This document shows, one piece after another, positions 25,986 through 64,000 of a stretch of DNA of 64,000 nucleotides; the stretch's first letter is position 1; each line of letters starts with the position of its first letter. The stretch comes from Eukaryota sp. GEM-RC1. Taxonomy: Eukaryota. The DNA lies in assembly GCA_040285855.1 (NCBI GenBank), contig JAUFOQ010000010.1, positions 310,001 to 374,000 of the forward strand, written 5' to 3'. The translations under genes were made by a program, and so were the position numbers. The notes beneath the pieces were generated by a model. It made no database searches, was not told the origin of the DNA, and saw only the letters and a program-made list of their open reading frames with translations.

Positions 25986-26160
25986 AAAATTTTCCTATAG
26001 AAAAATCATCATCAAAAATCTTGGAAATTGATCTTGAAATACAAAGATCAACAGATTGAAATCCATGAAGAAAAATAATTCCTGACAAGATAACCAACAG
26101 AGGAAGAATATAGTAAGTGTTCCAGATCAAAAATTTTAGGCGGAAATACTCAATCTTCCA

Positions 26161-29100: not shown

Positions 29101-31295
29101 GAAGAAGTTTCGTCTCTACAGTCTTTATTGGAATGTATTAGCATTAAAGAGCTTACTATTAAGCAATGCATATTTACTGATACAGCAATCACTGCTTTGT
29201 GTGATTCAATTAAGAACAATTCGTCATTGTCTTCTGTTGAGTTCAGTGAGTGCAGAATTTCTAATGACATGACACGTATCCGATGTTTTCATTTATGTTG
29301 TTCATCAAAACAGGAAAATACCACCATAAAATTCAAAGAACTATTGGCGGTGTTTTGTCTTTTTCAACACATAATTCGCTGCAGCGCATGTGCATTGATG
29401 ATCATCAAATCAATTTTGATCGCCGTGTTATCAGTTTCAATAACTGGATTTTTAAATGTTGATATTTATGAACTCTTGAAACTTTTGAAATCAAATGTTC
29501 CTATTGATCGTGTTGAATGTCTTGGTTTAAGAAAACCAACTCTTAAAAGTCTTTTAGTTTTGCTTGAAATTCGGTCTATTAAGAAATCACTAATTGATCT
29601 AGATGTTTATCCTCACATTATTGATGTTGATAATGGCGTGTTTTGTTTTCCAACACCACAGTATTCCACGAAAATACATCCTCGAGAAATCGCGTCATTA
29701 AATCGTTTTTGTATCAAAGAGTTTACTCTAAAGAAATATACGTTTACTGAAGCATGCTTTATTGCTTTTTGTAATCTAATCAAGGTCAATCAGTTGTTGA
29801 CTTTTATTGACTTAAGTGATTGTAATCTTTCTAATGAAAATGTGTCAAAACTAATCAATGCACTTCAATCAAATTTTCGATTAAAAACCATCATCTTAAA
29901 CAATAATTCCATTGAGTTTCAATGTTTATTAACCATGATGGAAATGATATCGACAAAACAATTACCTGCTAATATTCAAGTTGTTCCTCATTCAATTGAT
30001 GTTAGGAATGGTGTGTTTTGTTTTTCGCCAAACAAGTTCACACATATGCATATGACTGTCCAAGACGTTTCATCTCTAAAGTCCTTGATGAAGGGTTTTA
30101 GTATCAAGGAGCTCTCTCTTAAACGATGTGCCTTTACTCAGGACGCAATTACTGTATTGTGTGATTTAATTAAGGCCAACAAAGATTTGACTTGTGTTGA
30201 CTTCAGTTATATTAAAATGTGTCAACCAATTTCATCACTTCAAGATTCAAGCGGTGGCTGTGACTATTACTCATCGATCGGCCAATTGTCTGATATTAAT
30301 TTCTTGAAATTAATCTCGACACTTCACTATAGCTGTAATTTACAAAAAGTCGATTTTAGGCATGCTTCTATTGGACTCAACAGCTTGTTAACCATTTTTG
30401 AGCTGGTTTCAACAAACAAATTCATATCCAATATTGATATTGCTCCCCATGTCATTAATACTAAAAATGGTGTGCTTGGCTTTTCACCAGAATGGCTTAC
30501 CGTAATCACTGCAGAAGAAGTTTCGTCTTTAGACACTTTTTTAAATTGTTTCGGTGTCAAGCACCTTAAGCTGAAAAATTGTAATTTTGTCAATGAATCA
30601 TTGATTTTGTTGTGTGATTTAGTTAGCACCAATATTGCTTTGACTTCTGTTGACCTTCATTTTTGTCGACTGTCTAATGACATCAATTTTTTCCGAAGTT
30701 GTCATTGTAACTCTTCTTTAAAACAATTGAGTGTCAATGGTTCCCCTGTAGAGTTCCAAAACCTATTGGATGTTTACCTTCTATTTTCAAAACATGACTC
30801 GATACAATTGATTACTATTGATGATCATTTGCTCGATTTTAATCATCATAGCATCACTTACAACAATTGGATATCAAGTGCAAAGTTAGTACCTCTTCTA
30901 AACGTTTTAAATGTCGTGGTTTGAGAGACCTCACTTTCAAAGGTCTTGTTTATTTGTTTATAATTCGTTCTATTGACAAATCAGTGACTGATCTTTTGCC
31001 TCAACATGTCGACGTCGAAAATGGTGTGTATTGTTTTTCTCCTTCTCGTACTTCTGCCAAAATCTCTCATAGAGAAATCTCATATTTAAAATGTCTGTGT
31101 ATCAGAAAGCTGTCTTTACTGAACTGTAATTTTACTGATAGTGGCGTTGTTGCTTTGTGTGATTTATTGAAAGTTAGTAAGTTCTTGATTTCTGTTGACC
31201 TACGTGGTAGTAATCTGTCTAATGACAATTGTTCCAAACTTTCTGATGCACTTCGATCCAACTCCAGTTTAACAGCAGTTGGTCTCATTAATTAA
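26161..31295 (+). CDS. Very large composite-repeat LRR protein (in-frame TGA at 27373-27375, frameshift near 30900)
   Basis: ORFs 26161-27375 and 27382-30924 are in the same frame, separated by TGA at the conserved Cys of RVEC.GL; multiple NVPIKRVEC / PHxIDVxNGVFCFSP / SLTSVDFS units; internal 783-bp duplication. Confidence 0.8.
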
Positions 31296-33470: not shown

Positions 33471-33729
33471 GTTCAAAACTTCTACTCTTGAACGTGTAGT
33501 GTATCCTCGTGATTGTAGACTGCATAAGTGAAGAAAGTTGACCATAAAAGTACTGTATAGTAAATTTAAACTGTCAAGTCATTGGTTATCAGTATCAATT
33601 CATTGAATGAAAGTCATACATAGTCAATATTCCTCTGTGTTCTGTTGTAGTAAACCATTTGCTTTTTCCAACATCAATATTTTAAAATTATATATGTTAA
33701 ACTCCATTCTGTTCCTTTCAGTTTTTTGT

Positions 33730-34545
33730 TCTTTTATAAAACAGTAATTATAGAACTCAACTTTATCACATCCTTCGATGTTAACCATTGATGACCATTT
33801 ACTCAAATTTGGTCACCATCTAATTATTTACAAACAGTGGATGTCAAATACAGCTTTCGATTCACTTTTAGATGTCGTAGTACACTGAGTGAAAACTCAA
33901 AATTCTTTTCATGTGCTTAAATGTCCAATTTGGGGTATTGAAATAGATTAACATGTATCAATGTAATAAAGTAGTGGTGTTTGTGTGACGTCGATTTTTA
34001 AAAGACATTGTGTTAGTTTCACATAAAAACCACATCACAACTAACAACAATCAGTGTTGATCTAATTCTTTATAGTAACTTCCAAAATGGTACGAACAAA
34101 TCTTGATGATAAGCAAAGACGAATTGAATGTATAACCGAAAACCAAGAATTGACGAAATTCACAGATATGAGTATGCAACAGGATAAAGAAATTAGTGAA
34201 AGATCTTGATTATGTGTCCGCATCACAATTTAACAACAGTTTACACCGCACTTTGACATAAACAGGTCACAAACCTAGTTCGACAGAATCATGGATTATT
34301 CGGAATCAATTTGATTGGTGTTTGATCACATTGAGTACATATAGTTGCATCAGAATCTACAGCACATCTACTGCACTGACCCTACACGGCAAATCTTTTG
34401 GTATGAATAGTAAACACTGTTTCTTGTATTCTTTGATCAACTTTAGTTGACACAAACAACTGGTAACTATTATACATACTAAAAAAAATACGCATTGAAA
34501 GCAAATTGAAATTGGACTTGTTCAAAATGATTTGAAAATGTAAAG
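33730..34545 (+). repeat. Dispersed diverged duplication, copy 1 (copy 2 at ~63050-63873)
   Basis: Long shared blocks such as CATCACAACTAACAACAATCAGTGTTGATCTAATTCTTTATAGTAACTTCCAAAA and GTTCGACAGAATCATGGATTATTCGGAATCAATT. Confidence 0.85.
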
Positions 34546-43884: not shown

Positions 43885-45336
43885 ATGTCTCACTATCTCT
43901 GTGATATTTGTCATGAAATTCTCAAGAATCCGGTAACTACTTGGTGTGGCCACACCTTTTGTATGTCGGATTTGCAGGAGTGGCTTGTTTCTCATAACGG
44001 ATGTCCGATCTGTCGAGCTGAAGTGGACAAGTCAAGGCTGTGTCCTAACTACAAGTTGAAAGAAGCTGTTGAAGCCTTTGTTGCTGGTCAAGGTGAGACT
44101 ATTTGTTTTGAGTGTGATGAAGCTGCTGCCACTTGTTATTGCGCAGATTGTGACGTTGATTTCTGTGACAACTGTTTTAACCCTGCGCATCGCCCCAAGT
44201 TGCTACGATCTCATGTTGCTGTCCCCCTAAATAAGAAGCATGCCTACCTTGTTCCTAAGTGCCCCAGCCACAACATGAAGTCGTTAGAGTTGTTCTGCAC
44301 CTTCTGCTCCGTCGCCCTTTGCTCCACTTGTGCTTTCCTTGGTGATCATGACCAGCACAAAAAGAAGTTGCTTCCCTTTGACGAAGGTCGAACCTCTGTT
44401 GAAAAGAATATCAACTCTATAAACCAAGAATTGTCCGTTGCTATTGAAAAAATATCACAGTTAGCTGAAGCTGCTATTCAGCAAGCAACAAGTGGTTTTG
44501 TCCAACTCAAAGAAAGTCTGACTGTCCTGCTCCAAGAAACTATGTTAGACTCTGCTACCATTATGAATGACTTACAATCTGGGAAACCTGTCATGTTCAA
44601 GCCAAATATCAGCGAAAAATTCACTACCACCACTTCAACCCTTCTCAACAACCAATCTGATGTCATCTCCTCTTTAAATGAAGAACTGTTCTCCATCCAC
44701 TCCGATGCTTCTCGTCGTTTGACCTCTCTTTCCGTTGATTCGGAGTCTAGTGTTGCTTCTGCTAGGCTTCTAGAAGACCCTCCTTTACCAATCAAGTGCA
44801 TTGAAAGTGTCTGCCCTGTACAACAAGTTGAAGAGAAGAAACTTGTTATTGATTGGAGCAAGCTTAGCTCTAAGTTGAAGAGTTGTTATGATCAAATGGT
44901 GAGAAATGAGGTTTCTACGATCAATCTAGACAGCAACTCAATTGGTAATGAAGGCGCTATTGCAATTGCTGAAGCTTTGAAGGTGAATTCTTCACTTTCT
45001 ACGATCTATCTATATAACAACTCAATTGGTACTGAAGGCGCTATTGCAATTGCTGAAGCTTTGAAGGTGAATTCTTCACTTTCTACGATCTATCTATATA
45101 ACAACTCAATTGGTACTGAAGGCGCTATTGCAATTGCTGAAGCTTTGAAGGTGAATTCTTCACTTTCTACGATCAATCTAAATAACAACTCAATTGGTAC
45201 TGAAGGCGCTATTGCAATTGCTGAAGCTTTGAAGGTGAATTCTTCACTTTCTACGATCAGTCTATATAACAACTCAATCAACAGTCAAACACAACAGTCG
45301 TTAAAATCTCTACACCAGAACAGAGTGTATTTTTAG
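43885..45336 (+). CDS. TRIM-like protein: RING - B-box1 - B-box2 - coiled coil - RNI-type LRRs (4 full modules + cap); putative E3 ubiquitin ligase
   Basis: Intact 483-aa ORF from ATG 43885. RING CDIC..CGHTFC..D..CPIC; B-box1 CFEC..CADC..FC..C..H..H; B-box2 CPSH..FC..C..LC..C..H..H; heptad-like helical region; 28-aa STIxLxxNSIGxEGAIAIAEALKVNSSL repeats. Confidence 0.92.
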   Translation: MSHYLCDICHEILKNPVTTWCGHTFCMSDLQEWLVSHNGCPICRAEVDKSRLCPNYKLKEAVEAFVAGQGETICFECDEAAATCYCADCDVDFCDNCFNPAHRPKLLRSHVAVPLNKKHAYLVPKCPSHNMKSLELFCTFCSVALCSTCAFLGDHDQHKKKLLPFDEGRTSVEKNINSINQELSVAIEKISQLAEAAIQQATSGFVQLKESLTVLLQETMLDSATIMNDLQSGKPVMFKPNISEKFTTTTSTLLNNQSDVISSLNEELFSIHSDASRRLTSLSVDSESSVASARLLEDPPLPIKCIESVCPVQQVEEKKLVIDWSKLSSKLKSCYDQMVRNEVSTINLDSNSIGNEGAIAIAEALKVNSSLSTIYLYNNSIGTEGAIAIAEALKVNSSLSTIYLYNNSIGTEGAIAIAEALKVNSSLSTINLNNNSIGTEGAIAIAEALKVNSSLSTISLYNNSINSQTQQSLKSLHQNRVYF

Positions 45337-46222
45337 ACATGTTTTTCTTGGATATAAAGATCACATTTTTCAATCACAAATAATTTCTTGTCAGAAACAC
45401 CATTATTAAACGATGTATGTATAAAACACTTCAAAAATGATTTAGCTCAGAACAATCATTGTCCCGAACAAAACTCAGAAGTGACTCACCACAGATAATC
45501 AAATATCATGGCTGTTTAGCAGATGTTGATATACATATTTTAACTACTACTCTGGTGAGTAACACACATCATATTTACTCAGCTGGTGCTTTTGCGATTG
45601 TTTCCAATAACACCAGACATTTATTAGTATCTGAAATAGTGTTTATACTATATACTTACCAATATTTGGAATTGCCAACATTCAATCTCATTATTAACAC
45701 GACTATATTATCCTTTGAGAAGCTTCACTGTCATGATGCTTGGATTATTCTCAGTGATGATTCATATACGTGTTTTTGCATTTTTTCAGTAAATCTGACA
45801 GTGATAGACAAAGAATTACCAAAACTGTTTCATTGAATATTGCAGTCAATAGCAAGAACACAAATGGCGGCGTTGAATTTACGAAGACTCAGTGAAACTA
45901 TTTTGCTTTCTGCAGTTTTTACATAGGCAAGTAAAAGCTATTGAAATTAAAGAGTATGAATTTGTAATCTTTGTTAACTGATTGTTGAGAATTTATTCGC
46001 AAATTACAGATATTTTACCAGAAGAAAGAGTGTATATATAGACTTTTTAATACTGGTTAGAAGTAATATTATTATTTTGTCTTTGTGTCAAGACACAAAA
46101 CCGGTTTTTGTACATCTTAACTTATGTAACATATACTAGGTGACACAGCAGTGGATATGTATTCTGTAGACTATCTGAAAAACACAAAACGTAATTGATA
46201 AGGCTTTGAAGAAACACGCGGA

Positions 46223-47050
46223 GTCGTCTTTAAGCCAAAGATCGAAAAATTCACTTCCACCACTTCAACCCTTCTCAACAACCAATCTAATATCATCTCC
46301 TCTTTAAATGAAGAACTGTTCTCCATCCACTCCGATGCTTCTCGTCGTTTGACCTCTCTTTCCGTTGATTCGGAGTCTAGTGTTGCTTCTGCTAGGCTTC
46401 TAGAAGACCCTCCTTTACCAATCAAGTGCATTGAAAGTGTCTGCCCTGTACAACAAGTTGAAGAGAAGAAACTTGTTATTGATTGGAGCAAGCTTAGCTC
46501 TAAGTTGAAGAGTTGTTATGATCAAATGGTGAGAAATGAGGTTTCTACGATCTATCTAGACAGCAACTCAATTGGTACTGAAGGCGCTATTGCAATTGCT
46601 GAAGCTTTGAAGGTGAATTCTTCTCTTTCTACGATCTATCTAGATAACAACTCAATTGGTACTGAAGGCGCTATTGCAATTGTTGAAGCTTTGAAGGTGA
46701 ATTCTTCACTTTCTACGATCAATCTAGACAACAACTCAATTGGTAATGAAGGCGCTATTGCAATTGCTGAAGCTTTGAAGGTGAATTCTTCACTTTCTAC
46801 GATCAATCTAGACAACAACTCAATTGGTAATGAAGGCGCTATTGCAATTGCTGAAGCTTTGAAGGTGAATTCTTCACTTTCTACGATCAATCTATATAAC
46901 AACTCAATTGGTACTGAAGGCGCTATTGCAATTGCTGAAGCTTTGAAGGTGAATTCTTCACTTTCTACGATCAATCTACGTAACAACTCAATCAACAGTC
47001 AAACAATACAGTCGTTAAAATCTCTACACCAGAACAGAATGTCTTTTTAG
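46223..47050 (+). pseudogene. LRR cassette unit 2 (5 full modules + cap), no RING/B-box
   Basis: Homology to the TRIM gene starts at ~46223; in-frame stop just upstream; first in-frame ATG at 46526 (MVRNEV). Confidence 0.8.
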
Positions 47051-47937
47051 ACATGTTTTTCTTGGATATAAAGATCACATTTTTCAATCACAAATAATTT
47101 CTTGTCAGAAACACCATTATTAAACGATGTATGTATAAAACACTTCAAAAATGATTTAGCTCAGAACAATCATTGTCCCGAACAAAACTCAGAAGTGACT
47201 CACCACAGATAATCAAATATCATGGCTGTTTAGCAGATGTTGATATACATATTTTAACTACTACTCTGGTGAGTAACACACATCATATTTACTCAGCTGG
47301 TGCTTTTGCGATTGTTCCCAATAACACCAGACATTTATTAGTATCTGAAATAGTGTTTATACTATATACTTACCAATATTTGGAATTGCCAACATTCAAT
47401 CTCATTATTAACACGACTATATTATCCTTTGAGAAGCTTCACTGTCATGATGCTTGGATTATTCTCAGTGATGATTCATATACGTGTTTTTGCATTTTTT
47501 CAGTAAATCTGACAGTGATAGACAAAGAATTACCAAAACTGTTTCATTGAATATTGCAGTCAATAGCAAGAACACAAATGGCGGCGTTGAATTTACGAAG
47601 ACTCAGTGAAACTATTTTGCTTTCTGCAGTTTTTACATAGGCAAGTAAAAGCTATTGAAATTAAAGAGTATGAATTTGTAATCTTTGTTAACTGATTGTT
47701 GAGAATTTATTCGCAAATTACAGATATTTTACCAGAAGAAAGAGTGTATATATAGACTTTTTTAATACTGGTTAGAAGTAATATTATTATTTTGTCTTTG
47801 TGTCAAGACACAAAACCGGTTTTTGTACATCTTAACTTATGTAACATATACTAGGTGACACAGCAGTGGATATGTATTCTGTAGACTATCTGAAAAACAC
47901 AAAACGTAATTGATAAGGCTTTGAAGAAACACGCGGA

Positions 47938-48645
47938 GTCGTCTTTAAGCCAAAGATCGAAAAATTCACTTCCACCACTTCAACCCTTCTCAACAACCAA
48001 TCTAATATCATCTCCTCTTTAAATGAAGAACTGTTCTCCATCCACTCCGATGCTTCTCGTCGTTTGACCTCTCTTTCCGTTGATTCGGAGTCTAGTGTTG
48101 CTTCTGCTAGGCTTCTAGAAGACCCTCCTTTACCAATCAAGTGCATTGAAAGTGTCTGCCCTGTACAACAAGTTGAAGAGAAGAAACTTGTTATTGATTG
48201 GAGCAAGCTTAGCTCTAAGTTGAAGAGTTGTTATGATCAAATGGTGAGAAATGAGGTTTCTACGATCTATCTAGACAGCAACTCAATTGGTAATGAAGGC
48301 GCCATTGCAATTGCTGAAGCTTTGAAGGTGAATTCTTCACTTTCTACGATCAATCTAAATAACAACTCAATTGGTAATGAAGGCGCTATTGCAATTGCTG
48401 AAGCTTTGAAGGTGAATTCTTCACTTTCTACGATCTATCTATATAACAACTCAATTGGTACTGAAGGCGCTATTGCAATTGCTGAAGCTTTGAAGGTGAA
48501 TTCTTCACTTTCTATGATCGATCTACGTAACAACTCAATCAACAGTCAAACAATACAGTCGTTAAAATCTCTACACCAGAACAGAATGTCTTTTTTAGAC
48601 ATGTTTTTCTTGGATATAAAGATCACATTTTTCAATCACAAATAA
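47938..48645 (+). pseudogene. LRR cassette unit 3 (3 full modules + cap); an extra T at the stop gives read-through
   Basis: Same linker; first in-frame ATG 48241; T6 instead of T5 before AG at ~48591. Confidence 0.8.
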
Positions 48646-49484
48646 TTTCTTGTCAGAAACACCATTATTAAACGATGTATGTATAAAACACTTCAAAAAT
48701 GATTTAGCTCAGAACAATCATTGTCCCGAACAAAACTCAGAAGTGACTCACCACAGATAATCAAATATCATGGCTGTTTAGCAGATGTTGATATACATAT
48801 TTTAACTACTACTCTGGTGAGTAACACACATCATATTTACTCAGCTGGTGCTTTTGCGATTGTTCCCAATAACACCAGACATTTATTAGTATCTGAAATA
48901 GTGTTTATACTATATACTTACCAATATTTGGAATTGCCAACATTCAATCTCATTATTAACACGACTATATTATCCTTTGAGAAGCTTCACTGTCATGATG
49001 CTTGGATTATTCTCAGTGATGATTCATATACGTGTTTTTGCATTTTGTCAGTAAATCTGACAGTGATAGACAAAGAATTACCAAAACTGTTTCATTGAAT
49101 ATTGCAGTCAATAGCAAGAACACAAATGGCGGCGTTGAATTTACGAAGACTCAGTGAAACTATTTTGCTTTCTGCAGTTTTTACATAGGCAAGTAAAAGC
49201 TATTGAAATTAAAGAGTATGAATTTGTAATCTTTGTTAACTGATTGTTGAGAATTTATTCGCAAATTACAGATATTTTACCAGAAGAAAGAGTGTATATA
49301 TAGACTTTTTAATACTGGTTAGAAGTAATATTATTATTTTGTCTTTGTGTCAAGACACAAAACCGGTTTTTGTACATCTTAACTTATGTAACATATACTA
49401 GGTGACACAGCAGTGGATATGTATTCTGTAGACTATCTGAAAAACACAAAACGTAATTGATAAGGCTTTGAAGAAACACGCGGA

Positions 49485-50315
49485 GTCGTCTTTAAGCCAA
49501 AGATCAGCGAAAAATTCACTACCACCACTTCAACCCTTCTCAACAACCAATCTAATATCATCTCCTCTTTAAATGAAGAACTGTTCTCCATCCACTCCGA
49601 TGCTTCTCGTCGTTTGACCTCTCTTTCCGTTGATTCGGAGTCTAGTGTTGCTTCTGCTAGGCTTCTAGAAGACCCTCCTTTACCAATCAAGTGCATTGAA
49701 AGTGTCTGCCCTGTACAACAAGTTGAAGAGAAGAAACTTGTTATTGATTGGAGCAAGCTTAGCTCTAAGTTGAAGAGTTGTTATGATCAAATGGTGAGAA
49801 ATGAGGTTTCTACGATCAATCTCAATAACAACTCAATTGGTACTGAAGGCGCTATTGCAATTGCTGAAGCTTTGAAGGTGAATTCTTCACTTTCTACGAT
49901 CAATCTAAATAACAACTCAATTGGTACTGAAGGCGCTATTGCAATTGCTGAAGCTTTGAAGGTGAATTCTTCACTTTCTACGATCAATCTAAATAACAAC
50001 TCAATTGGTAATGAAGGCGCTATTGCAATTGCTGAAGCTTTGAAGGTGAATTCTTCACTTTCTAGAATCGATCTACGTAACAACTCAATTGGTACTGAAG
50101 GCGCTATTGCAATTGCTGAAGCTTTGAAGGTGAATTCTTCACTTTCTAGAATCGATCTACGTAACAACTCAATTGGTACTGAAGGCGCTATTGCAATTGC
50201 TGAAGCTTTGAAGGTGAATTCTTCACTTTCTACGATCAATCTAAATAACAACTCAATCAACAGTCAAACACAACAGTCGTTAAAATCTCTACACCAGAAC
50301 AGAGTGTATTTTTAG
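49485..50315 (+). pseudogene. LRR cassette unit 4 (5 full modules + cap)
   Basis: Same linker; first in-frame ATG 49791. Confidence 0.8.
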
Positions 50316-51205
50316 ACATGTTTTTCTTGGATATAAAGATCACATTTTTCAATCACAAATAATTTCTTGTCAGAAACACCATTATTAAACGATGTATGTA
50401 TAAAACACTTCAAAAATGATTTAGCTCAGAACAATCATTGTCCCGAACAAAACTCAGAAGTGACTCACCACAGATAATCAAATATCATGGCTGTTTAGCA
50501 GATGTTGAGATACATATTTTAACTACTACTCTGGTGAGTAACACACATCATATTTACTCAGCTGGTGCTTTTGCGATTGTTCCCAATAACACCAGACATT
50601 TATTAGTATCTGAAATAGTGTTTATACTATATACTTACCAATATTTGGAATTGCCAACATTCAATCTCATTATTAACACGACTATATTATCCTTTGAGAA
50701 GCTTCACTGTCAATATATGATGCTTGGATTATTCTCAGTGATGATTCATATACGTGTTTTTGCATTTTTTCAGTAAATCTGACAGTGATAGACAAAGAAT
50801 TACCAAAACTGTTTCATTGAATATTGCAGTCAATAGCAAGAACACAAATGGCGGCGTTGAATTTACGAAGACTCAGTGAAACTATTTTGCTTTCTGCAGT
50901 TTTTACATAGGCAAGTATAAGCTATTGAAATTAAAGAGTATGAATTTGTAATCTTTGTTAACTAATTGTTGAGAATTTATTCGCAAATTACAGATATTTT
51001 ACCAGAAGAAAGAGTGTATGTATAGACTTTTTTAATACTGGTTAAAAGTAATATTATGATTTTGTCTTTGTATCAACACACAAAACCGGTTTTTGTACAT
51101 CTTAACTTATGTAGCATATACTAGGTGACACAGCAGTGGATATGTATTCTGTAGACTATCTGAAAAGCACAAAACGTAATTGATAAGGCTTGAAGAAACA
51201 CGCGG

Positions 51206-52614
51206 AGTCGTCTTTAAGCCAAAGATCAGCGAAAAATTCACTACCACCACTTCAACCCTTCTCAACAACCAATCTAATATCATCTCCTCTTTAAATGAAG
51301 AACTGTTCTCCATCCACTCCGATGCTTCTCGTCGTTTGACCTCTCTTTCCGTTGATTCTTGCTTCTGCTAGGCTTCTAGAAGACCCTCCTTTACCAATCA
51401 AGTGCATTGAAAGTGTCTGCCCTGTACAACAAGTTGAAGAGAAGAAACTTGTTATTGATTGGAGCAAGCTTAGCTCTAAGTTGAAGAGTTGTTATGATCA
51501 AATGGTGAGAAATGAGGTTTCTACGATCAATCTAGACAGCAACTCAATTGGTAATGAAGGCGCTATTGCAATTGCTGAAGCTTTGAAGGTGAATTCTTCA
51601 CTTTCTACGATCAATCTAAATAACAACTCAATTGGTACTGAAGGCGCTATTGCAATTGCTGAAGCTTTGAAGGTGAATTCTTCACTTTCTACGATCTATC
51701 TAGATAACAACTCAATTGGTACTGAAGGCGCTTTTGCAATTGCTGAAGCTTTGAAGGTGAATTCTTCACTTTCTAGAATCGATCTACGTAACAACTCAAT
51801 TGGTACTGAAGGCGCTATTGCAATTGCTGAAGCTTTGAAGGTGAATTCTTCACTTTCTACGATCAATCTAAATAACAACTCAATTGGTAATGAAGGCGCT
51901 ATTGCAATTGCTCAAGCTTTGAAGGTGAATTCTTCACTTTCTACGATCAATCTAAATAACAACTCAATTGGTACTGAAGGCGCTATTGCAATTGCTGAAG
52001 CTTTGAAGGTGAATTCTTCACTTTCTACGATCTATCTAGATAACAACTCAATTGGTACTGAAGGCGCTATTGCAATTGCTGAAGCTTTGAAGGTGAATTC
52101 TTCACTTTCTAGAATCGATCTACGTAACAACTCAATTGGTACTGAAGGCGCTATTGCAATTGCTGAAGCTTTGAAGGTGAATTCTTCACTTTCTACGATC
52201 AATCTAAATAACAACTCAATTGGTAATGAAGGCGCTATTGCAATTGCTGAAGCTTTGAAGGTGAATTCTTCACTTTCTAGAATCGATCTACGTAACAACT
52301 CAATTGGTAATGAAGGCGCTATTGCAATTGCTGAAGCTTTGAAGGTGAATTCTTCACTTTCTACGATCTATCTATATAACAACTCAATTGGTACTGAAGG
52401 CGCTATTGCAATTGCTGAAGCTTTGAAGGTGAATTCTTCACTTTCTACGATCAATCTAAATAACAACTCAATTGGTAATGAAGGCGCTATTGCAATTGCT
52501 GAAGCTTTGAAGGTGAATTCTTCACTTTCTACGATCAATCTAAATAACAACTCAATCAACAGTCAAACACAACAGTCGTTAAAATCTCTACACCAGAACA
52601 GAGTGTATTTTTAG
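51206..52614 (+). pseudogene. LRR cassette unit 5 (12 full modules + cap); 11-bp deletion in the linker
   Basis: GATTC|TTGCTTC at ~51358 versus GATTCGGAGTCTAGTGTTGCTTC; first in-frame ATG 51502. Confidence 0.8.
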
Positions 52615-53507
52615 ACATGTTTTTCTTGGATATAAAGATCACATTTTTCAATCACAAATAATTTCTTGTCAGAAACACCATTATTAAACGATGTATGTAT
52701 AAAACACTTCAAAAATGATTTAGCTCAGAACAATCATTGTCCCGAACAAAACTCAGAAGTGACTCACCACAGATAATCAAATATCATGGCTGTTTAGCAG
52801 ATGTTGATATACATATTTTAACTACTACTCTGGTGAGTAACACACATCATATTTACTCAGCTGGTGCTTTTGCGATTGTTCCCAATAACACCAGACATTT
52901 ATTAGTATCTGAAATAGTGTTTATACTATATACTTACCAATATTTGGAATTGCCAACATTCAATCTCATTATTAACACGACTATATTATCCTTTGAGAAG
53001 CTTCACTGTCAATATATGATGCTTGGATTATTCTCAGTGATGATTCATATACGTGTTTTTTGCATTTTGTCAGTAAATCTGACAGTGATAGACAAAGAAT
53101 TACCAAAACTGTTTTATTGAATATTGCAGTCAATAGCAAAAACACAAATGACGGCGTTAAATTTACGAAGACTCAGTGAAACTATTCTGCTTTTTGCAGT
53201 TTTTACATAGGCAAGTATAAGCTATGGAAATTAAAGAGTATGAATTTGTAATCTTTGTTAACTGATTGTTGAGAATTTATTCGCAAATTACAGATATTTT
53301 ACCAGAAGAAAGAGTGTATATATAGACTTTTTTAATACTGGTTAGAAGTAATATTATTATTTTGTCTTTGTGTCAAGACACAAAACCGGTTTTTGTACAT
53401 CTTAACTTATGTAACATATACTAGGTGACACAGCAGTGGATATGTATTCTGTAGACTATCTGAAAAACACAAAACGTAATTGATAAGGCTTTGAAGAAAC
53501 ACGCGGA

Positions 53508-54590
53508 GTCGTCTTTAAGCCAAAGATCAGCGAAAAATTCACTACCACCACTTCAACCCTTCTCAACAACCAATCTAATATCATCTCCTCTTTAAATGAA
53601 GAACTGTTCTCCATCCACTCCGATGCTTCTCGTCGTTTGACCTCTCTTTCCGTTGATTCGGAGTCTAGTGTTGCTTCTGCTAGGCTTCTAGAAGACCCTC
53701 CTTTACCAATCAAGTGCATTGAAAGTGTCTGCCCTGTACAACAAGTTGAAGAGAAGAAACTTGTTATTGATTGGAGCAAGCTTAGCTCTAAGTTGAAGAG
53801 TTGTTATGATCAAATGGTGAGAAATGAGGTTTCTACGATCTATCTCAATAACAACTCAATTGGTAATGAAGGCGCTATTGCAATTGCTGAAGCTTTGAAG
53901 GTGAATTCTTCTCTTTCTACGATCGGTCTATCTAACAACTCAATTGGTAATGAAGGCGCTATTGCAATTGCTGAAGCTTTGAAGGTGAATTCTTCTCTTT
54001 CTACGATCTATCTAGATAACAACTCAATTGGTACTGAAGGCGCTATTGCAATTGCCGAAGCTTTGAAGGTGAATTCTTCTCTTTCTACGATCTATCTAGA
54101 TAACAACTCAATTGGTACTGAAGGCGCTATTGCAATTGCCGAAGCTTTGAAGGTGAATTCTTCACTTTCTACGATCGGTCTATCTAACAACTCAATTGGT
54201 AATGAAGGCGCTATTGCAATTGCTGAAGCTTTGAAGGTGAATTCTTCTCTTTCTACGATCGGTCTATCTAACAACTCAATTGGTACTGAAGGCGCTATTG
54301 CAATTGCTGAAGCTTTGAAGGTGAATTCTTCTCTTTCTACGATCCGTCTATCTGACAACTCAATTGGTAATGAAGGCGCTATTGCAATTGCCGAAGCTTT
54401 GAAGGTGAATTCTTCACTTTCTACGATCTATCTAGATAACAACTCAATTGGTACTGAAGGCGCTATTGCAATTGCTGAAGCTTTGAAGGTGAATTCTTCA
54501 CTTTCTACGATCTATCTATATAACAACTCAATCAAGAGTCAAACACAACAGTCGTTAAAATCTCTACACCAGAACAGAATGTATTTTTAG
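53508..54590 (+). pseudogene. LRR cassette unit 6 (8 full modules + cap)
   Basis: Same linker; first in-frame ATG 53814; carries IGLSN and IRLSD module variants. Confidence 0.8.
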
Positions 54591-55072
54591 ACATGTTTTT
54601 CTTGGATATAAAGATCACATTTTTCAATCACAAATAATTTCTTGTCAGAAACACCATTATTAAACGATGTATGTATAAAACACTTCAAAAATGATTTAGC
54701 TCAGAACAATCATTATCCCGAACAAAACTCAGAAGTGACTCACCACAAATAATCAAATATCATGGATGTTTAGCAGATGTTGAGATACAGATTTTAACTA
54801 CTACTCTGGTGAATAACACACGTCATATTTACTCAGCTGGTGCTTTTGCGATTGTTCTCAACAACACCAGACATTTATTAGCATCTGAAATAGTGTTTAT
54901 ACTATATACTTACCAATATTTGGAATTGCCAACATTCAATCTCATTATTAACACGACTATATTATCCTTTGAGAAGCTTCACTGTCAATATATGATGCTT
55001 GGATTATTCTCAGTGATGATTCATATACGTGTTTTTGCATTTTTTCAGTAAATCTGACAGTGATAGACAAAG

Positions 55073-55171
55073 CTGTTGTAAGGTTTGATAGCGACGGGTG
55101 TTGTTTTAATGATATCAAATTCTAGTTGTTTGATCTATTACATTTATAATAAAACTATTAATTAAAAAAAA
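55073..55171 (+). mobile_element. 99-bp 5'-truncated family C non-LTR insertion with A8 tail and 17-bp TSD
   Basis: Matches the reverse complement of ~22660-22750; TSD GACAGTGATAGACAAAG at 55056-55072 and 55172-55188; absent from six other spacers. Confidence 0.92.
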
Positions 55172-55592
55172 GACAGTGATAGACAAAGAATTACCAAAAT
55201 TGTTTTATTGAATATTGCAGTCAGAAGCAAAAACACAAATGGCGCCGTTAAATTTACGAAGACTCAGTGAAACTATTTTTCTTTTTGCAGTTTTTACATA
55301 GGCAAGTATAAGCTATAGAAATTAAAGAGTATGAATTTGTAATCTTTGTTAACTAATTGTTGAGAATTTATTCGCAAATTGCAGATATTTTTCCAGAAAA
55401 AAGAGTGTATAGACCTTTTAATACTGGTTAGAAGTAATATTATCATTTTGTCTTTGTGTCGACACACAAAACCGGTTTTTGTACATCTTAACTTATGTAA
55501 CATATACTAGATGACACAGCATTGGATATGTATTCTGTAGACTGTCTGAAAAACACAAAACGTAATTGATAAGGCTTGAAGAAACACGCAGA

Positions 55593-56921
55593 GTCATCTT
55601 TAAGCCAAAGATCAGTGAAGACTTCACCACTTCAACCCTTCTCAACAACCAATCTAATATCATCTCCTCTTTAAATGAAGAACTGTTCTCCATCCACTCC
55701 GATGCTTCTCGTCGTTTGACCTCTCTTTCCGTTGATTCGGAGTCTAGTGTTGCTTCTGCTAGGCTTCTAGAAGACCCTCCTTTACCAATCAAGTGCATTG
55801 AAAGTGTCTGCCCTGTACAACAAGTTGAAGAGAAGAAACTTGTTATTGATTGGAGCAAGCTTAGCTCTAAGTTGAAGAGTTGTTATGATCAAATGGTGAG
55901 AAATGAGGTTTCTACGATCAATCTAGACAGCAACTCAATTGGTAATGAAGGCGCTATTGCAATTGCTGAAGCTTTGAAGGTGAATTCTTCACTTTCTACG
56001 ATCAATCTAAATAACAACTCAATTGGTACTGAAGGCGCTATTGCAATTGCTGAAGCTTTGAAGGTGAATTCTTCACTTTCTACGATCTATCTAGATAACA
56101 ACTCAATTGGTACTGAAGGCGCTATTGCAATTGCTGAAGCTTTGAAGGTGAATTCTTCACTTTCTACGATCAATCTAAATAACAACTCAATTGGTAATGA
56201 AGGCGCTATTGCAATTGCTGAAGCTTTGAAGGTGAATTCTTCACTTTCTACGATCAATCTATATAACAACTCAATTGGTAATGAAGGCGCTATTGCAATT
56301 GCTGAAGCTTTGAAGGTGAATTCTTCACTTTCTACGATCGATCTACGTAACAACTCAATTGGTACTGAAGGCGCTATTGCAATTGCTGAAGCTTTGAAGG
56401 TGAATTCTTCACTTTCTACGATCAATCTAAATAACAACTCAATTGGTAATGAAGGCGCTATTGCAATTGCTGAAGCTTTGAAGGTGAATTCTTCACTTTC
56501 TACGATCAATCTAAATAACAACTCAATTGGTCCTGAAGGAGCTATTGCAATTGCTGAAGCTTTGAAGGTGAATTCTTCACTTTCTACGATCAATCTATAT
56601 AACAACTCAATTGGTAATGAAGGCGCTATTGCAATTGCTGAAGCTTTGAAGGTGAATTCTTCACTTTCTACGATCAATCTAAATAACAACTCAATTGGTA
56701 ATGAAGGCGCTATTGCAATTGCTGAAGCTTTGAAGGTGAATTCTTCACTTTCTACGATCAATCTAAATAACAACTCAATTGGTCCTGAAGGAGCTATTGC
56801 AATTGCTGAAGCTTTGAAGGTGAATTCTTCACTTTCTACGATCTATCTATATAACAACTCAATCAAGAGTCAAACACAACAGTCGTTAAAATCTCTACAC
56901 CAGAACAGAATGTATTTTTAG
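55593..56921 (+). pseudogene. LRR cassette unit 7 (11 full modules + cap)
   Basis: Same linker with an in-frame 6-bp deletion; first in-frame ATG 55893; carries GPEG module variants. Confidence 0.8.
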
Positions 56922-57403
56922 ACATGTTTTTCTTGGATATAAAGATCACATTTTTCAATCACAAATAATTTCTTGTCAGAAACACCATTATTAAACGATG
57001 TATGTATAAAACACTTCAAAAATGATTTAGCTCAGAACAATCATTATCCCGAACAAAACTCAGAAGTGACTCACCACAAATAATCAAATATCATGGATGT
57101 TTAGCAGATGTTGAGATACAGATTTTAACTACTACTCTGGTGAATAACACACGTCATATTTACTCAGCTGGTGCTTTTGCGATTGTTCTCAACAACACCA
57201 GACATTTATTAGCATCTGAAATAGTGTTTATACTATATACTTACCAATATTTGGAATTGCCAACATTCAATCTCATTATTAACACGACTATATTATCCTT
57301 TGAGAAGCTTCACTGTCAATATATGATGCTTGGATTATTCTCAGTGATGATTCATATACGTGTTTTTGCATTTTTTCAGTAAATCTGACAGTGATAGACA
57401 AAG

Positions 57404-57502
57404 CTGTTGTAAGGTTTGATAGCGACGGGTGTTGTTTTAATGATATCAAATTCTAGTTGTTTGATCTATTACATTTATAATAAAACTATTAATTAAAAAA
57501 AA
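57404..57502 (+). mobile_element. Duplicate of the 99-bp family C insertion
   Basis: Same sequence and same TSD (57387-57403, 57503-57519) as 55073-55171. Confidence 0.92.
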
Positions 57503-57922
57503 GACAGTGATAGACAAAGAATTACCAAAATTGTTTTATTGAATATTGCAGTCAGAAGCAAAAACACAAATGGCGCCGTTAAATTTACGAAGACTCAGTG
57601 AAACTATTTTTCTTTTTGCAGTTTTTACATAGGCAAGTATAAGCTATAGAAATTAAAGAGTATGAATTTGTAATCTTTGTTAACTAATTGTTGAGAATTT
57701 ATTCGCAAATTGCAGATATTTTTCCAGAAAAAGAGTGTATAGACCTTTTAATACTGGTTAGAAGTAATATTATCATTTTGTCTTTGTGTCGACACACAAA
57801 ACCGGTTTTTGTACATCTTAACTTATGTAACATATACTAGATGACACAGCATTGGATATGTATTCTGTAGACTGTCTGAAAAACACAAAACGTAATTGAT
57901 AAGGCTTGAAGAAACACGCAGA

Positions 57923-58578
57923 GTCATCTTTAAGCCAAAGATCAGTGAAGACTTCACCACTTCAACCTTTCTCAACAACCAATCTAATATCATCTCCTCT
58001 TTAAATGAAGAACTGTTCTCCATCCACCCGATGCTTCTCGTCGTTTGACCTCTCTTTCCGTTGATTCGGAGTCTAGTGTTGCTTCTGCTAGGCTTCTAGA
58101 AGACCCTCCTTTACCAATCAAGTGCATTGAAAGTGTCTGCCCTGTACAACAAGTTGAAGAGAAGAAACTTGTTATTGATTGGAGCAAGCTTAGCTCTAAG
58201 TTGAAGAGTTGTTATGATCAAATGGTGAGAAATGAGGTTTCTACGATCAATCTAGACAGCAACTCAATTGGTAATGAAGGCGCTATTGCAATTGCTGAAG
58301 CTTTGAAGGTGAATTCTTCACTTTCTACGATCAATCTATATAACAACTCAATTGGTACTGAAGGCGCTATTGCAATTGCTGAAGCTTTGAAGGTGAATTC
58401 TTCACTTTCTACGATCGATCTACGTAACAACTCAATTGGTACTGAAGGCGCTATTGCAATTGCTGAAGCTTTGAAGGTGAATTCTTCACTTTCTACGATC
58501 TCTCTATATAACAACTCAATCAAGAGTCAAACACAACAGTCGTTAAAATCTCTACACCAGAACAGAATGTATTTTTAG
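57923..58578 (+). pseudogene. LRR cassette unit 8 (3 full modules + cap); 1-bp deletion in the linker
   Basis: CATCCACCCGATG at ~58021 versus CATCCACTCCGATG; first in-frame ATG 58222. Confidence 0.8.
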
Positions 58579-59469
58579 ACATGTTTTTCTTGGATATAAA
58601 GATCACATTTTTCAATCACAAATAATTTCTTATCAGAAACACCATTATTAAACGATGTATGTATAAAACACTTCAAAAATGATTTAGCTCAGAACAATCA
58701 TTGTCCCGAACAAAACTCAGAAGTGACTCACCACAGATAATCAAATATCATGGCTGTTTAGCAGATGTTGATATACATATTTTAACTACTACTCTGGTGA
58801 GTAACACACATCATATTTACTCAGCTGGTGCTTTTGCGATTGTTCCCAATAACACCAGACATTTATTAGTATCTGAAATAGTGTTTATACTATATACTTA
58901 CCAATATTTGGAATTGCCAACATTCAATCTCATTATTAACACGACTATATTATCCTTTGAGAAGCTTCACTGTCAATATATGATGCTTGGATTATTCTCA
59001 GTGATGATTCATATACGTGTTTTTGCATTTTTTCTGTAAATCTGACAGTGATAGACAAAGAATTACCAAAACTGTTTCATTGAATATTGCAGTCAATAGC
59101 AAGAACACAAATGGCGGCGTTGAATTTACGAAGACTCAGTGAAACTATTTTGCTTTCTGCAGTTTTTACATAGGCAAGTAAAAGCTATTGAAATTAAAGA
59201 GTATGAATTTGTAATCTTTGTTAACTGATTGTTGAGAATTTATTCGCAAATTACAGATATTTTACCAGAAGAAAGAGTGTATATATAGACTTTTTAATAC
59301 TGGTTAGAAGTAATATTATTATTTTGTCTTTGTGTCAAGACACAAAACCGGTTTTTGTACATCTTAACTTATGTAACATATACTAGGTGACACAGCAGTG
59401 GATATGTATTCTGTAGACTATCTGAAAAACACAAAACGTAATTGATAAGGCTTTGAAGAAACACGCGGA

Positions 59470-61224
59470 GTCGTCTTTAAGCCAAAGATCAGCGAAAAAT
59501 TCACTACCACCACTTCAACCCTTCTCAACAACTAATCTAATATCATCTCCTCTTTAAATGAAGAACTGTTCTCCATCCACTCCGATGCTTCTCGTCGTTT
59601 GACCTCTCTTTCCGTTGATTCGGAGTCTAGTGTTGCTTCTGCTAGGCTTCTAGAAGACCCTCCTTTACCAATCAAGTGCATTGAAAGTGTCTGCCCTGTA
59701 CAACAAGTTGAAGAGAAGAAACTTGTTATTGATTGGAGCAAGCTTAGCTCTAAGTTGAAGAGTTGTTATGATCAAATGGTGAGAAATGAGGTTTCTACGA
59801 TCAATCTAGACAGCAACTCAATTGGTAATGAAGGCGCTATTGCAATTGCTGAAGCTTTGAAGGTGAATTCTTCACTTTCTACGATCAATCTATATAACAA
59901 CTCAATTGGTAATGAAGGCGCTATTGCAATTGCTGAAGCTTTGAAGGTGAATTCTTCTCTTTCTACGATCTATCTAGATAACAACTCAATTGGTACTGAA
60001 GGCGCTATTGCAATTGCTGAAGCTTTGAAGGTGAATTCTTCTCTTTCTACGATCTATCTAGATAACAACTCAATTGGTACTGAAGGCGCTATTGCAATTG
60101 CCGAAGCTTTGAAGGTGAATTCTTCACTTTCTACGATCGGTCTATCTAACAACTCAATTGGTAATGAAGGCGCTATTGCAATTGCTGAAGCTTTGAAGGT
60201 GAATTCTTCTCTTTCTACGATCTATCTAGATAACAACTCAATTGGTACTGAAGGCGCTATTGCAATTGCTGAAGCTTTGAAGGTGAATTCTTCACTTTCT
60301 ACGATCAATCTAAATAACAACTCAATTGGTAATGAAGGCGCTATTGCAATTGCTGAAGCTTTGAAGGTGAATTCTTCACTTTCTACGATCAATCTATATA
60401 ACAACTCAATTGGTAATGAAGGCGCTATTGCAATTGCTGAAGCTTTGAAGGTGAATTCTTCACTTTCTAGAATCGATCTACGTAAAAACTCAATTGGTAA
60501 TGAAGGCGCTATTGCAATTGCTGAAGCTTTGAAGGTGAATTCTTCACTTTCTACGATCAATCTAAATAACAACTCAATTGGTAATGAAGGCGCTATTGCA
60601 ATTGCTGAAGCTTTGAAGGTGAATTCTTCACTTTCTACGATCAATCTAAATAACAACTCAATTGGTACTGAAGGCGCTATTGCAATTGCTGAAGCTTTGA
60701 AGGTGAATTCTTCACTTTCTACGATCTATCTAGATAACAACTCAATTGGTACTGAAGGCGCTATTGCAATTGCTGAAGCTTTGAAGGTGAATTCTTCACT
60801 TTCTACGATCAATCTAAATAACAACTCAATTGGTAATGAAGGCGCTATTGCAATTGCTGAAGCTTTGAAGGTGAATTCTTCACTTTCTACGATCAATCTA
60901 TATAACAACTCAATTGGTAATGAAGGCGCTATTGCAATTGCTGAAGCTTTGAAGGTGAATTCTTCACTTTCTAGAATCGATCTACGTAAAAACTCAATTG
61001 GTAATGAAGGCGCTATTGCAATTGCTGAAGCTTTGAAGGTGAATTCTTCACTTTCTACGATCAATCTAAATAACAACTCAATTGGTAATGAAGGCGCTAT
61101 TGCAATTGCTGAAGCTTTGAAGGTGAATTCGTCTGTTTCTAAGATTGATCTAGATAACAACTCAATCAACAGTCAAACACAACAGTCATTAAAATCACTG
61201 CACAAGAATAGAATTCGTTTTTAA
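59470..61224 (+). pseudogene. LRR cassette unit 9 (16 full modules + divergent cap); in-frame TAA in the linker
   Basis: CAA>TAA at 59533-59535; first in-frame ATG 59776; cap SVSKIDLDNN...HKNRIRF differs from other units. Confidence 0.8.
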
Positions 61225-61789: not shown

Positions 61790-62035
61790 GCTAGAATTTC
61801 TGATTTCTATCTACATAAAAACTCAATTGGTTCTGAAGCTGCTATTGCATTTGGTGAAGTTTTGAAGGTGAATTCGACTGTTTCTCATATTTATCTATTT
61901 AACAACTCAATTGGTCCCGAAGGCGCTACTGCAATTGCTGAAGCTTTAAAGGTGAATTCGTCTGTTTCTCGTGTCTATCTATATAACAACTCAATTAACA
62001 GTCAAACACAATCAACCGAAGGGACGTGTGTGTAA
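61790..62035 (+). pseudogene. Diverged orphan LRR cassette (about 2 modules + partial cap) of the same 28-aa type
   Basis: FYLHKNSIGSEAAIAFGEVLKVNST, IYLFNNSIGPEGATAIAEALKVNSS, VYLYNNSINSQTQ; followed by a diverged spacer fragment. Confidence 0.7.
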
Positions 62036-62149
62036 TCAACGGTCATGATTATCAACACGACTGCATTTTTTCTCAAGAAATAGCTTCATTGTCCTTGAGT
62101 TGAGTGATGCTTTGGTTATTCTCAGTGATATATTCTATGTTCAGTATGC

Positions 62150-62768
62150 TTGTAATCTTTCTGATGACGATTGTTTCATATTGATCAGTGCACTTCACAA
62201 CAATAATTTAAAAAAATTGGATCTCAGTCGCAATTCGTTTGGTCTCAACCGTCTTTTATCCATTTATGAGTTGGTTTCAACAAACAAATTTCCACCCACT
62301 GTTGAAGTGGATCCTCATTCTGTTGATGATGAAAATGATCTATTCTCATTTTCCCCAAAAAAGTTGACTCATTTTACTACAGAAGATGTCTCAGTTCTAC
62401 GCCGTTTTTTAGGTTCATCTATAATCAGAGATCTTTCTCTTAATAATTGTAGATTTACTGATGAAGCATTCACTAGATTTTGTGAAGCTGTCAGACTCAA
62501 TCACATGGCGTTGTATTCTATTGACCTCAGTCACTGTGCACTCACAGACGACAACGTCTCCCAATTTGTTAGATTATTGCAGTTCACTTCAAATCTTAGT
62601 GTTATTGATCTTAGTAGCAATTCAATTTGTAATGAAGGTGCCATTGTATTGGCTGAAATGTTAAAGGTAAATACAAATATCACTAGTATTTACCTTCGGC
62701 GAAACTCTATTGATACTGAAACCCAACTCTTCATCCAAAAAGTTTCAAATGGTCGTATAAGATGTTAA
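62150..62768 (+). pseudogene. C-terminal fragment of a composite-repeat LRR gene
   Basis: YELVSTNKF..VEVDPHSVD...FSFSP, LNNCRFTDEA, LSSNSICNEGAIVLAEMLKVN, SNGRIRC end as in the 14759 gene; lacks its own N-terminus. Confidence 0.7.
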
Positions 62769-63049
62769 CTTAAATCTTATGACATTTTCGTAAATTTATT
62801 AGTACACATAATAATACTTTACCGTAAATTCTGTTTTTTCACAAAAATCTGTTCACACATACGATTTGTTAAATTTTGATTTTTCAACACACAAAGGGAA
62901 CCTGATGTGTTATAAGTCCTATGAAAGTAATTCTTGGTAAATATTCAAATGTGTTGTGTTGGAGTAAAATATCTGCAGTTCCGTTTTCCCGACATCATTA
63001 CTGTAAAACAAAAGAATTAAACTCATTACCGCTCCTGTGATTTATTAAC

Positions 63050-63873
63050 CTTCTTTAAAACAGTAATTTTAAAACTCAATTTTATCACATAGTTCAATGC
63101 ATTTGTTGACCATTGATGACCATTATCATTTACTCAATATTGGTCAATATCTTATTATTTACAAAATCGAAACATAAATTAAGATTGGAATTCACTTTTA
63201 GATGTCGTAGTAACACTGAGTGATAACTGAAAATTCGTCGCATTTGATGAAATGTCCAATCTTTTCCGGATTAACATGTATCAATGTAATAAAGTGGTGG
63301 TGTTTGTGAGACGGCGATTGTTAATCGACATTGTGTTAGTTTCACATAAAAAACACATCACAACTAACAACAATCAGTGTTGATCTAATTCTTTATAGTA
63401 ACTTCCAAAATAGTACGAACAAATCTTGATGATAAGCAAAGACGAATTGAATGTATAAACGAAAACCAAGAATTGACGAAATTCACAGATATGGATATAC
63501 AACAGGATAAAGAAATTAGTGAAAGATCTTGATGATATGTCCGAATCATAATTTACCAACAATCTACACCACACTGTGAAATAAACAGGACACAAACCTA
63601 GTTCGACAGAATCATGGATTATTCGGAATCAATTCAATTGGTGTTTGATCACATTCAGTACATATACCAATTTTTCAACTTTTGTCATTTTACAAGAATT
63701 GCGTCAGAATCTACAGCACATTTACAGCACTGATCCTACATGGCAAATCTTTTGGTATGAATAGTAAACTATTTCAATCAATCCAATTTCAAAACAACTA
63801 TTATACATCCCAAAACAAAATACGCGTTGAAAGCAAAATAAAATTGGATTTGTTCAAAATGATTTGAAAATGT
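63050..63873 (+). repeat. Dispersed diverged duplication, copy 2 (copy 1 at ~33730-34545)
   Basis: Direct sequence match to 33730-34545 with substitutions and indels. Confidence 0.85.
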
Positions 63874-64000
63874 AATTATAAATTGTCTGATAACTCTGAA
63901 ACAATGTCAAAAACTGACAAATCGAAATTTAATTTATGAACGAAACACTATGAAAATGACTACAAAATCAGATGTTAGACTCTGTAATAAACATTCTGAT

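Follow-up and report, generated by a model that had tools for sequence, protein, structure and literature searches.

Repeat proteins that combine homogenised units with a varied binding face have precedents in fungi and in brown algae, and arrays of leucine-rich repeats (LRRs) commonly vary at the face in a similar way. The NWD/HNWD non-self receptors of Podospora anserina (het-d, het-e, het-r) have been described as carrying about 70 near-identical repeats that undergo concerted evolution within and between loci (PMC1805685, PMC2873952), and pseudogenes with intact repeats as well as rapid turnover of array length and order are reported from the same family (PMC1805685, PMC2873952). Among 69 NWD repeats, four binding-surface codons were found to be under positive selection (PMC1805685). 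Here we describe a comparable locus, in which four codons are likely under similar selection, in Eukaryota sp. GEM-RC1, a skoliomonad, i.e., a free-living bacterivorous metamonad (PMC11316075). The locus lies in a 64,000-nucleotide stretch of DNA (assembly GCA_040285855.1, contig JAUFOQ010000010.1, positions 310,001 to 374,000), here called the window, and consists of a gene for a TRIM-like protein with a terminal LRR array and of eight tandem downstream copies that lack its 5' half.

An anchor search located 76 modules in nine arrays (5, 6, 4, 6, 13, 9, 12, 4, and 17 modules) between window positions 44914 and 61221. Counted in this total are 67 full 84-bp modules and nine terminal cap modules, which share codons 1 to 9 only; the exact 84-bp spacing is kept across all 76. 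An older degenerate remnant of three modules at 61799 to 62035 was excluded from every count. Array 1 alone ends a whole gene, and 71 of the 76 modules sit in the headless copies, where each of arrays 2 to 9 is preceded by a spacer of 0.9 to 1.0 kb and then by about 320 nt of the middle of the gene, the RING and B-boxes being missing. All features of the locus lie on the plus strand. On balance, we consider it probable that the gene encodes an E3 ligase of variable specificity, that its repeat end is homogenised and reshuffled, that selection on intact genes maintains its faces, and that the headless row serves as a passive reservoir of modules.

Variable face codons in a homogenised module

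A first-pass annotation made from the DNA alone had named five codons of the module as variable. Alignment of the 76 modules confirmed codons 2, 4, 6, 7, and 12, and a recount returned the same alleles at all five. The counts were T67/R7/M1/K1 at codon 2, N38/Y20/D11/G4/S2/R1 at codon 4, N24/D21/Y15/R11/S5 at codon 6, and N66/S7/K2/D1 at codon 7 (n = 76 each), and N33/T32/P2 at codon 12 (n = 67). Amino-acid entropy at these codons was 0.64, 1.85, 2.16, 0.71, and 1.16 bits, respectively, and did not exceed 0.11 bits elsewhere; the pairwise proportion of replacement differences (pN) was 0.238 at the five codons, compared to a pN of 0.0024 and a proportion of silent differences (pS) of 0.030 at the other 23. 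Outside the five codons, four replacement alleles were found, each once (I16F, A19V, E20Q, and L28V). The helix had also been called almost invariant at synonymous sites; the silent TCT at codon 27, taken to be rare, is nevertheless present in 10 of 67 modules. The modules are not independent of one another, the 67 full ones representing 28 distinct DNA haplotypes and all 76 representing 17 face types. Ser at codon 7 is an edge-specific allele, confined to first modules (those of arrays 1, 2, 3, 5, 7, 8, and 9; 7 of the 9 arrays), and no avoidance of identical neighbouring faces was found (13 observed, 12.3 expected). Since the commonest codons at positions 4, 6, 7, and 12 are AAY, we also considered adenine mutagenesis by a diversity-generating retroelement, which would mutate every adenine of the template. 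This was rejected: adenine codons 4 and 6 are changed in 37/76 and 52/76 modules, unlike the adenines at silent sites, which are changed in 2/76, 0/76, 0/67, 0/67, 0/67, and 10/67.

To place these codons on a structure, the array of copy 9, starting one codon past its in-frame ATG, was modelled. It was predicted to form a strand-helix solenoid (predicted local distance difference test [pLDDT] score, 90) that aligned with ribonuclease inhibitor (RI; 4per_A) over 452 residues (Z = 40.1; root mean square deviation, 3.5), and the model has the 28-residue strand-helix repeat and horseshoe shape of RI-type LRRs. Strands were predicted at codons 2 to 6 (2 to 4 in inner repeats) and helices at codons 11 to 24. 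Codons 2, 4, 6, and 7 occupy x positions in the xxLxLxx motif, on the predicted strand and turn, a region given as the usual ligand-binding part of LRRs (PMC3138743); the x positions at codons 1 and 9 are invariant. Side-chain direction was deduced from the register of the repeats together with the RI fold. The proposal that all five variable codons lie on the predicted binding face therefore held for codons 2, 4, 6, and 7 and failed for codon 12, which in both models is the second helix residue, on the rim.

For tests of selection, the face was fixed beforehand as codons 1, 2, 4, 6, and 7, and each allele was counted once by minimum steps. In the face, 12.0 replacement sites held 17 changes and 3.0 silent sites held 2; in the rest of the module, 50.6 replacement sites held 6 changes and 18.4 silent sites held 7. 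Measured against silent changes in the whole module (9 on 21.4 sites), face replacements (17 on 12) were in 3.4-fold excess (P = 0.002). The ratio was 3.9 to 4.4 with transition bias and 4.1 once the diverged tail of copy 9 had been removed. Coalescent simulations under neutrality, in which face and helix were given independent genealogies, yielded P values of 0.005 to 0.012 on counts in settings where more than 3 runs qualified (one setting had 3 qualifying runs only) and of 0.001 to 0.028 on diversity. Nucleotide diversity was 0.016 at third positions of the fixed codons interleaved with the face and 0.29 at first and second face positions, and eight helix-side codons chosen as likely exposed had a pN of 0.002. 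The diversifying selection suggested by the first-pass annotation is thus backed by an excess that survives both the single counting of alleles and the neutral controls, but not by the narrower tests on the face alone (P = 0.24) and on codons 1 to 9 (P = 0.10). Moreover, with 71 of the 76 modules in headless copies, selection cannot act on all of them as ligase parts. Judged from these sequences, selection for face variety is likely but not proven.

Homogenisation of the scaffold, proposed at the same time, is supported by scaffold marks in relatives at other loci. The marks are mostly specific to the locus, with LKLNSSV in 4 of 5 repeats of one relative (P0003), VNSSV in others, and VNSSL in 66 of 67 modules here. 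Within the window, the four-gamete test failed for many site pairs, including codons 4 and 6, and the longest identical run of modules found in two places was 4 modules. Copies 2 and 3, with flanks only 1 and 2 substitutions apart, share no identical modules, and copies 7 and 8 (12 and 4 modules) share 2; the arrays change far faster than the flanking DNA. Each of the four full modules of the gene has 2 to 5 identical copies downstream, which fits exchange or recent common descent. Moreover, the DNA beside each array is homogenised, the intact gene included. Across all eight spacers, segregating sites numbered 48 of 800 in the core, 2 of 285 before the array, and 1 of 127 after it; the spacers between arrays 1 and 2 and between arrays 6 and 7 differed at 38 of 787 core sites, 0 of 285 pre-array sites, and 0 of 127 post-array sites. 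The final 250 nt ahead of the array was identical to the gene in 6 of the 8 copies, and the other 2 differed by deletion only. Concerted evolution of the repeat units is present, by DNA among the arrays of this locus and by protein only among distant loci.

The TRIM-like gene and its relatives

The intact gene (43885 to 45336) was recognised by its open frame, Pfam matches, and structure model and encodes 483 amino acids. A RING finger at residues 6 to 43 (43900 to 44013) matched zf-C3HC4_2 (E = 5e-9) and has the Cys/His positions, with Asp at the sixth ligand position; this ligand is His in the related proteins P0004 and P0005. B-box 1 at residues 74 to 110 (44104 to 44214) matched ANCHR-like_BBOX (E = 7e-6) at 26.6 bits, slightly below the cut-off of 27, and zf-B_box in two stretches; B-box 2 at residues 126 to 158 (44260 to 44358) matched zf-B_box (E = 2e-11). 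A coiled-coil region at residues 166 to 281 (44380 to 44727) is predicted from long helices at residues 166 to 218 and 240 to 281 in a low-confidence single-sequence model (pLDDT, 56 to 67), and no Pfam coiled-coil family was listed for it. The arm common to all eight headless copies, in which alignment gave homology from about residue 236 (44590 to 44913), precedes array 1, located by the anchor search as four modules and a cap (44914 to 45333).

An N-terminal RING followed by one or two B-boxes is the arrangement of TRIM or RING-B-box-coiled-coil (RBCC) proteins, in which the coiled coil makes an antiparallel dimer. In human members, 35 to 55 residues are reported between RING and B-box, 13 to 20 between the B-boxes, and 170 to 220 between B-box 2 and the end domain (PMC2533329). 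The corresponding gaps in the intact gene are 30, 15, and 185 residues, of which the first is just below the human range and the other two are inside it. The tripartite motif was called animal-specific in PMC2533329, and PMC3503706 extended TRIMs to other eukaryotes through the MATH-bearing subfamily A. Among the 12 Pfam families matched, MATH was absent, and the C terminus is an LRR array; the protein thus does not belong to TRIM subfamily A. NACHT and WD40 were likewise absent among the Pfam matches, placing it outside the NWD family proper. On the evidence of its RING, the gene is predicted to encode an E3 ubiquitin ligase.

A search with the head gave 9 matches among 2429 candidates, 7 of them named Eukaryota sp. 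GEM-RC1; by sequence comparison, the closest relatives of the TRIM-like protein are skoliomonad (metamonad) proteins. P0002, P0003, P0005, and P0129 are whole, P0006, P0007, and P0051 are annotated as headless, P0128 is a head only, and P0004 joins this head to a different, unrelated end. Ten more matches that were checked were all skoliomonad (4 from GEM-RC1 and 6 from TZLM1-RC), with RING and B-box in 7 of 10 and an LRR family in 0 of 10. Of 119 matches in an LRR search, 29 were GEM-RC1 proteins. At the protein level, the face differed by 0.55 to 0.65 and the scaffold by 0.02 to 0.08 in P0002, P0003, P0006, and P0014; the respective values were 0.30 and 0.04 in P0007 and 0.75 and 0.23 in P0005. 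Of the 17 face types in the window, 3 were seen again among the 37 types of 8 paralogs, as were 15 of the 19 single face residues. Of 354 pattern matches in metagenome contigs, 0 were confirmed; when the head was used to look for relatives of greater length, 2115 candidates yielded 1 weak match; and an exact-sequence look-up in a protein collection found 0 of 7 window proteins. In the Atlas, two RING/B-box clusters scored 0.92 and 0.91, and clusters that combine B-box with LRR_4 scored below 0.9; these serve as leads only.

Heads and tails seem to be mixed in the GEM-RC1 family. P0014 has these modules and cap behind a head of a second LRR-like family (see below), and P0015 has a B-box head with related modules. 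The head-only proteins P0128 and P0131 end near residues 230 to 234, and the headless P0006 and P0007 start near residues 220 to 236, as compared to the start of homology at 44590 in the window; this suggests a recurrent head/tail break near residues 230 to 236, which may instead stem from annotation. Two skoliomonads have an expanded RING-B-box-B-box-coil family, represented by P0132, P0134, P0135, P0137, P0141, and P0142, whose C-terminal ends had no Pfam match, those of P0135 and P0142 being alike. A contig from a viral collection (L001) carries three tandem RI-type LRR genes (744 to 1484, 1543 to 2241, and 2953 to 3651) in which the 84-bp modules are mosaics and the face residues aromatic or charged; the contrast between face (pN, 0.385) and rest (0.108) is weaker there.

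The headless copies and their possible origin

A non-coding spacer follows the gene (45337 to 46222) and recurs ahead of each headless copy. The arm is open in copies 2 (46223 to 47050), 3 (47938 to 48645), 4 (49485 to 50315), 6 (53508 to 54590), and 7 (55593 to 56921), which carry 5, 3, 5, 8, and 11 modules, respectively, each with a cap. Many faces of copy 6 read G-L-S, and in copy 3 an extra T in the terminal T-run, a slip at its last codon, adds 16 codons. The arm is broken by an 11-nt deletion in copy 5 (51207 to 52614; 12 modules and cap), by a 1-nt deletion in copy 8 (57923 to 58578; 3 modules and cap), and by a stop codon in copy 9 (59470 to 61224; 16 modules and cap). Every array is open from an ATG 18 nt upstream, and all 3 internal disablements fall in the arms (2442 nt) and 0 in the arrays (6084 nt; P = 0.023 if sites are independent). 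Donor selection, LRR-only products, or concerted evolution by itself could each account for this difference. Outside the diverged tail of copy 9, the singleton changes seen in the scaffold of headless copies comprise 3 replacements and 1 silent change, a near-neutral ratio from tiny numbers that weakly favours unselected copies. Copy 9 has a paralog-type 3' end, in which the end of the last module, the cap, and the 3' flank are diverged (83% over 115 nt, then 67%). Such a tail would fit a scenario in which unequal crossover of the gene with an older, truncated paralog amplified the copies. The diverged counterpart of the spacer behind copy 9 is the sole spacer match to an LRR-like frame at 62049.

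In the reading that we favour, the tandem copies would have arisen when the intact gene and a downstream truncated paralog underwent unequal crossover. Conversion and crossover between register-shifted modules would then remove differences in the scaffold and remodel the length and order of the arrays, many face alleles would be retained through selection on intact family members, and the headless copies, mostly unselected yet still exchanging, would form a passive reservoir of modules. The concave face might bind a fast-changing intracellular target, such as an invader protein or a mobile element, which would then be ubiquitinated; a role against intracellular invaders is suggested by animal TRIMs and by a discussion of Dictyostelium (PMC5758549). 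Several points speak against this reading. The face-only ratio of replacement to silent rates (omega) of 2.1 was not significant, nor was the comparison with the local silent control of codons 1 to 9, and when singletons were dropped, 11 face replacements stood against 6 silent changes in all. Codons 2 to 7 are strongly associated and mostly move as a block; therefore, independent events are few and are perhaps imports from diverged paralogs. Codons 2, 4, 6, and 7 are also the most variable in 21 Capsaspora proteins and among the most variable in 54 others, and part of the pattern is therefore general tolerance. The sixth RING ligand position is occupied by Asp. Finally, the Podospora rearrangements recovered experimentally are reported to be intragenic only (PMC2873952), which calls for caution about a large role for headless copies. 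Some of these points would be expected if there were no positive selection, with exposed strand residues being tolerant and short tracts from older paralogs adding variety where purifying selection permits. The nonsignificant omega, the raised pairwise pS of the face (0.135 to 0.198), the arrival of multi-base codon changes in blocks, and variation at the same positions in unrelated RI-type repeats all agree with this explanation. We nevertheless consider it quite improbable, since silent sites interleaved with the face are near-monomorphic, the observed contrast was reached in about 1 to 3% of neutral runs or fewer, and helix-side positions that are likely exposed do not vary.

More active roles of the copies were weighed against a passive reservoir. 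The headless copies may be a maintained donor library like that of Borrelia vls, from which segments would be copied one way and at a high rate into a single expressed ligase, so that clones differ in specificity. Indeed, a single whole gene adjoins a contiguous row of partial homologous copies, the layout of vls; the homogenised flanks on both sides of the arrays resemble homology arms, 13 of the 17 face types are not in the gene (R-I-D-L-R and G-L-S faces, for instance, occur in the copies alone), and disablements are confined to the arms. We think such a library unlikely. Neither a boundary motif nor a recombinase was found, the family has no single expression site, since whole genes occur elsewhere too (P0002, P0003, P0005, and P0129), and the diverged tail of copy 9 fits plain unequal crossover. 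In addition, Podospora pseudogene repeats are described as staying intact by concerted evolution alone (PMC1805685). Alternatively, the copies might be expressed, either as LRR-only decoys or adaptors from the ATG 18 nt before each array or by splicing of the gene head to a downstream array. All 8 copies have this ATG and an open frame of 118 to 482 codons, the longest array is predicted to fold alone, and one in-frame GT-AG join, 44590 to 46234, falls at a copy boundary. There are 26 in-frame candidates for such joins, however, conserved Val and Lys codons account for both dinucleotides of this one, and the fornicate-type branch and acceptor motif is absent. Moreover, the arm is disrupted in three copies, the predicted N-cap helix (residues 330 to 339) would be missing from LRR-only products, and scaffold singletons in the copies look neutral; expression therefore seems very unlikely. 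Least credible of all, to the point of being nearly negligible, is that artefacts of assembly or polishing partly determined how many modules and copies appear, and in what order. Nanopore assemblies with short-read correction are the source of the named relatives (PMC11316075), short reads are ambiguous on 84-bp repeats, and two pairs of spacers are only 1 substitution apart. However, core divergence between spacers reaches 4.8%, an insertion is shared between spacers, the 84-bp spacing is exact in all 76 modules, polishing ignores codons, and the pattern is seen again in relatives on other contigs.

Other features of the window surround the locus. The shared spacer insertion is 116 nt long and A-tailed, with a 17-nt target duplication (55056 to 55188; second copy at about 57387 to 57519). 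It matches 22647 to 22751 (92%) and 14909 to 14974 and, by its sequence, looks like the 3' end of a retroelement without long terminal repeats (non-LTR). Broken minus-strand frames at 9659 to 10983, 20885 to 21691, and 23400 to 23999 resemble, by their motif, non-LTR retrotransposons with a restriction-like endonuclease; a Pfam scan of these frames matched no family. The second LRR-like family consists of large, mostly broken genes clustered at 2636 to 5958, 11906 to 14759, 16649 to 18478, 26140 to 31295, and 62049 to 62768, which hold long internal repeats and some of which finish in the same SIGNEG-type repeats. A 0.95-kb repeat (79% identical), which had no match to the arrays, flanks the locus at 33607 to 34543 and 62921 to 63875. 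The spacer gave no match by blastx against the fetched proteins.

Comparison with known systems

Searches of an open-access library found no account of this family or locus; the supplements of PMC11316075 may list domain expansions. The order RING, two B-boxes, predicted long helices, and C-terminal binding domain is that of TRIM/RBCC proteins, and most of the spacing is close to theirs (PMC2533329, PMC3503706, PMC5758549). Unlike the window protein, with its two B-boxes and RI-type LRR end, the non-animal TRIMs of PMC3503706 are MATH-bearing subfamily A proteins that almost all have a single B-box, and the term LRR does not occur in the main text of that paper.

For the ROCO genes of Ectocarpus, shuffling of LRR modules is described, along with concave-face sites under selection and non-coding spare modules that were proposed as a reservoir (PMC3341825). 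There the repeat is a 72-nt exon (PMC3341825), whereas here the modules are contiguous in one frame and the spares are whole 3' gene halves. The Borrelia vlsE/vls system likewise pairs an expressed gene with contiguous, partial, similar copies and has an excess of replacements at variable sites (PMC3828179, PMC11499132). One-way conversion at a high rate has been demonstrated for vls (PMC3828179, PMC11499132), whereas this locus provides its layout, known from sequence. The vls product is a surface antigen and the window product a predicted cytosolic ligase; the copies here lie downstream in the same orientation, with 0.9-kb spacers between them.

A bolder reading, which we regard as doubtful, is that a free-living metamonad has anticipatory intracellular recognition, in which an LRR face would be rebuilt in clonal lineages from adjacent silent cassettes. 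It would combine the logic of vls antigenic variation with that of lamprey VLR assembly on a cytosolic E3 ligase. If clones do rewrite the gene from the headless copies, this would be cassette-based diversification of a protist defence receptor. For the recognition of intracellular invaders in single-celled bacterivores, the locus offers a concrete candidate far from animals, with 71 spare modules alongside.

The Podospora genes differ from this locus in their domains and arrangement: they join WD40 repeats to HET-NACHT and are dispersed, whereas here RI-type LRRs are joined to RING and B-boxes and the headless copies stand in tandem beside the gene. Compared to these systems, what is new is the RBCC-plus-LRR architecture, the expanded skoliomonad RBCC family, and the tandem headless copies.

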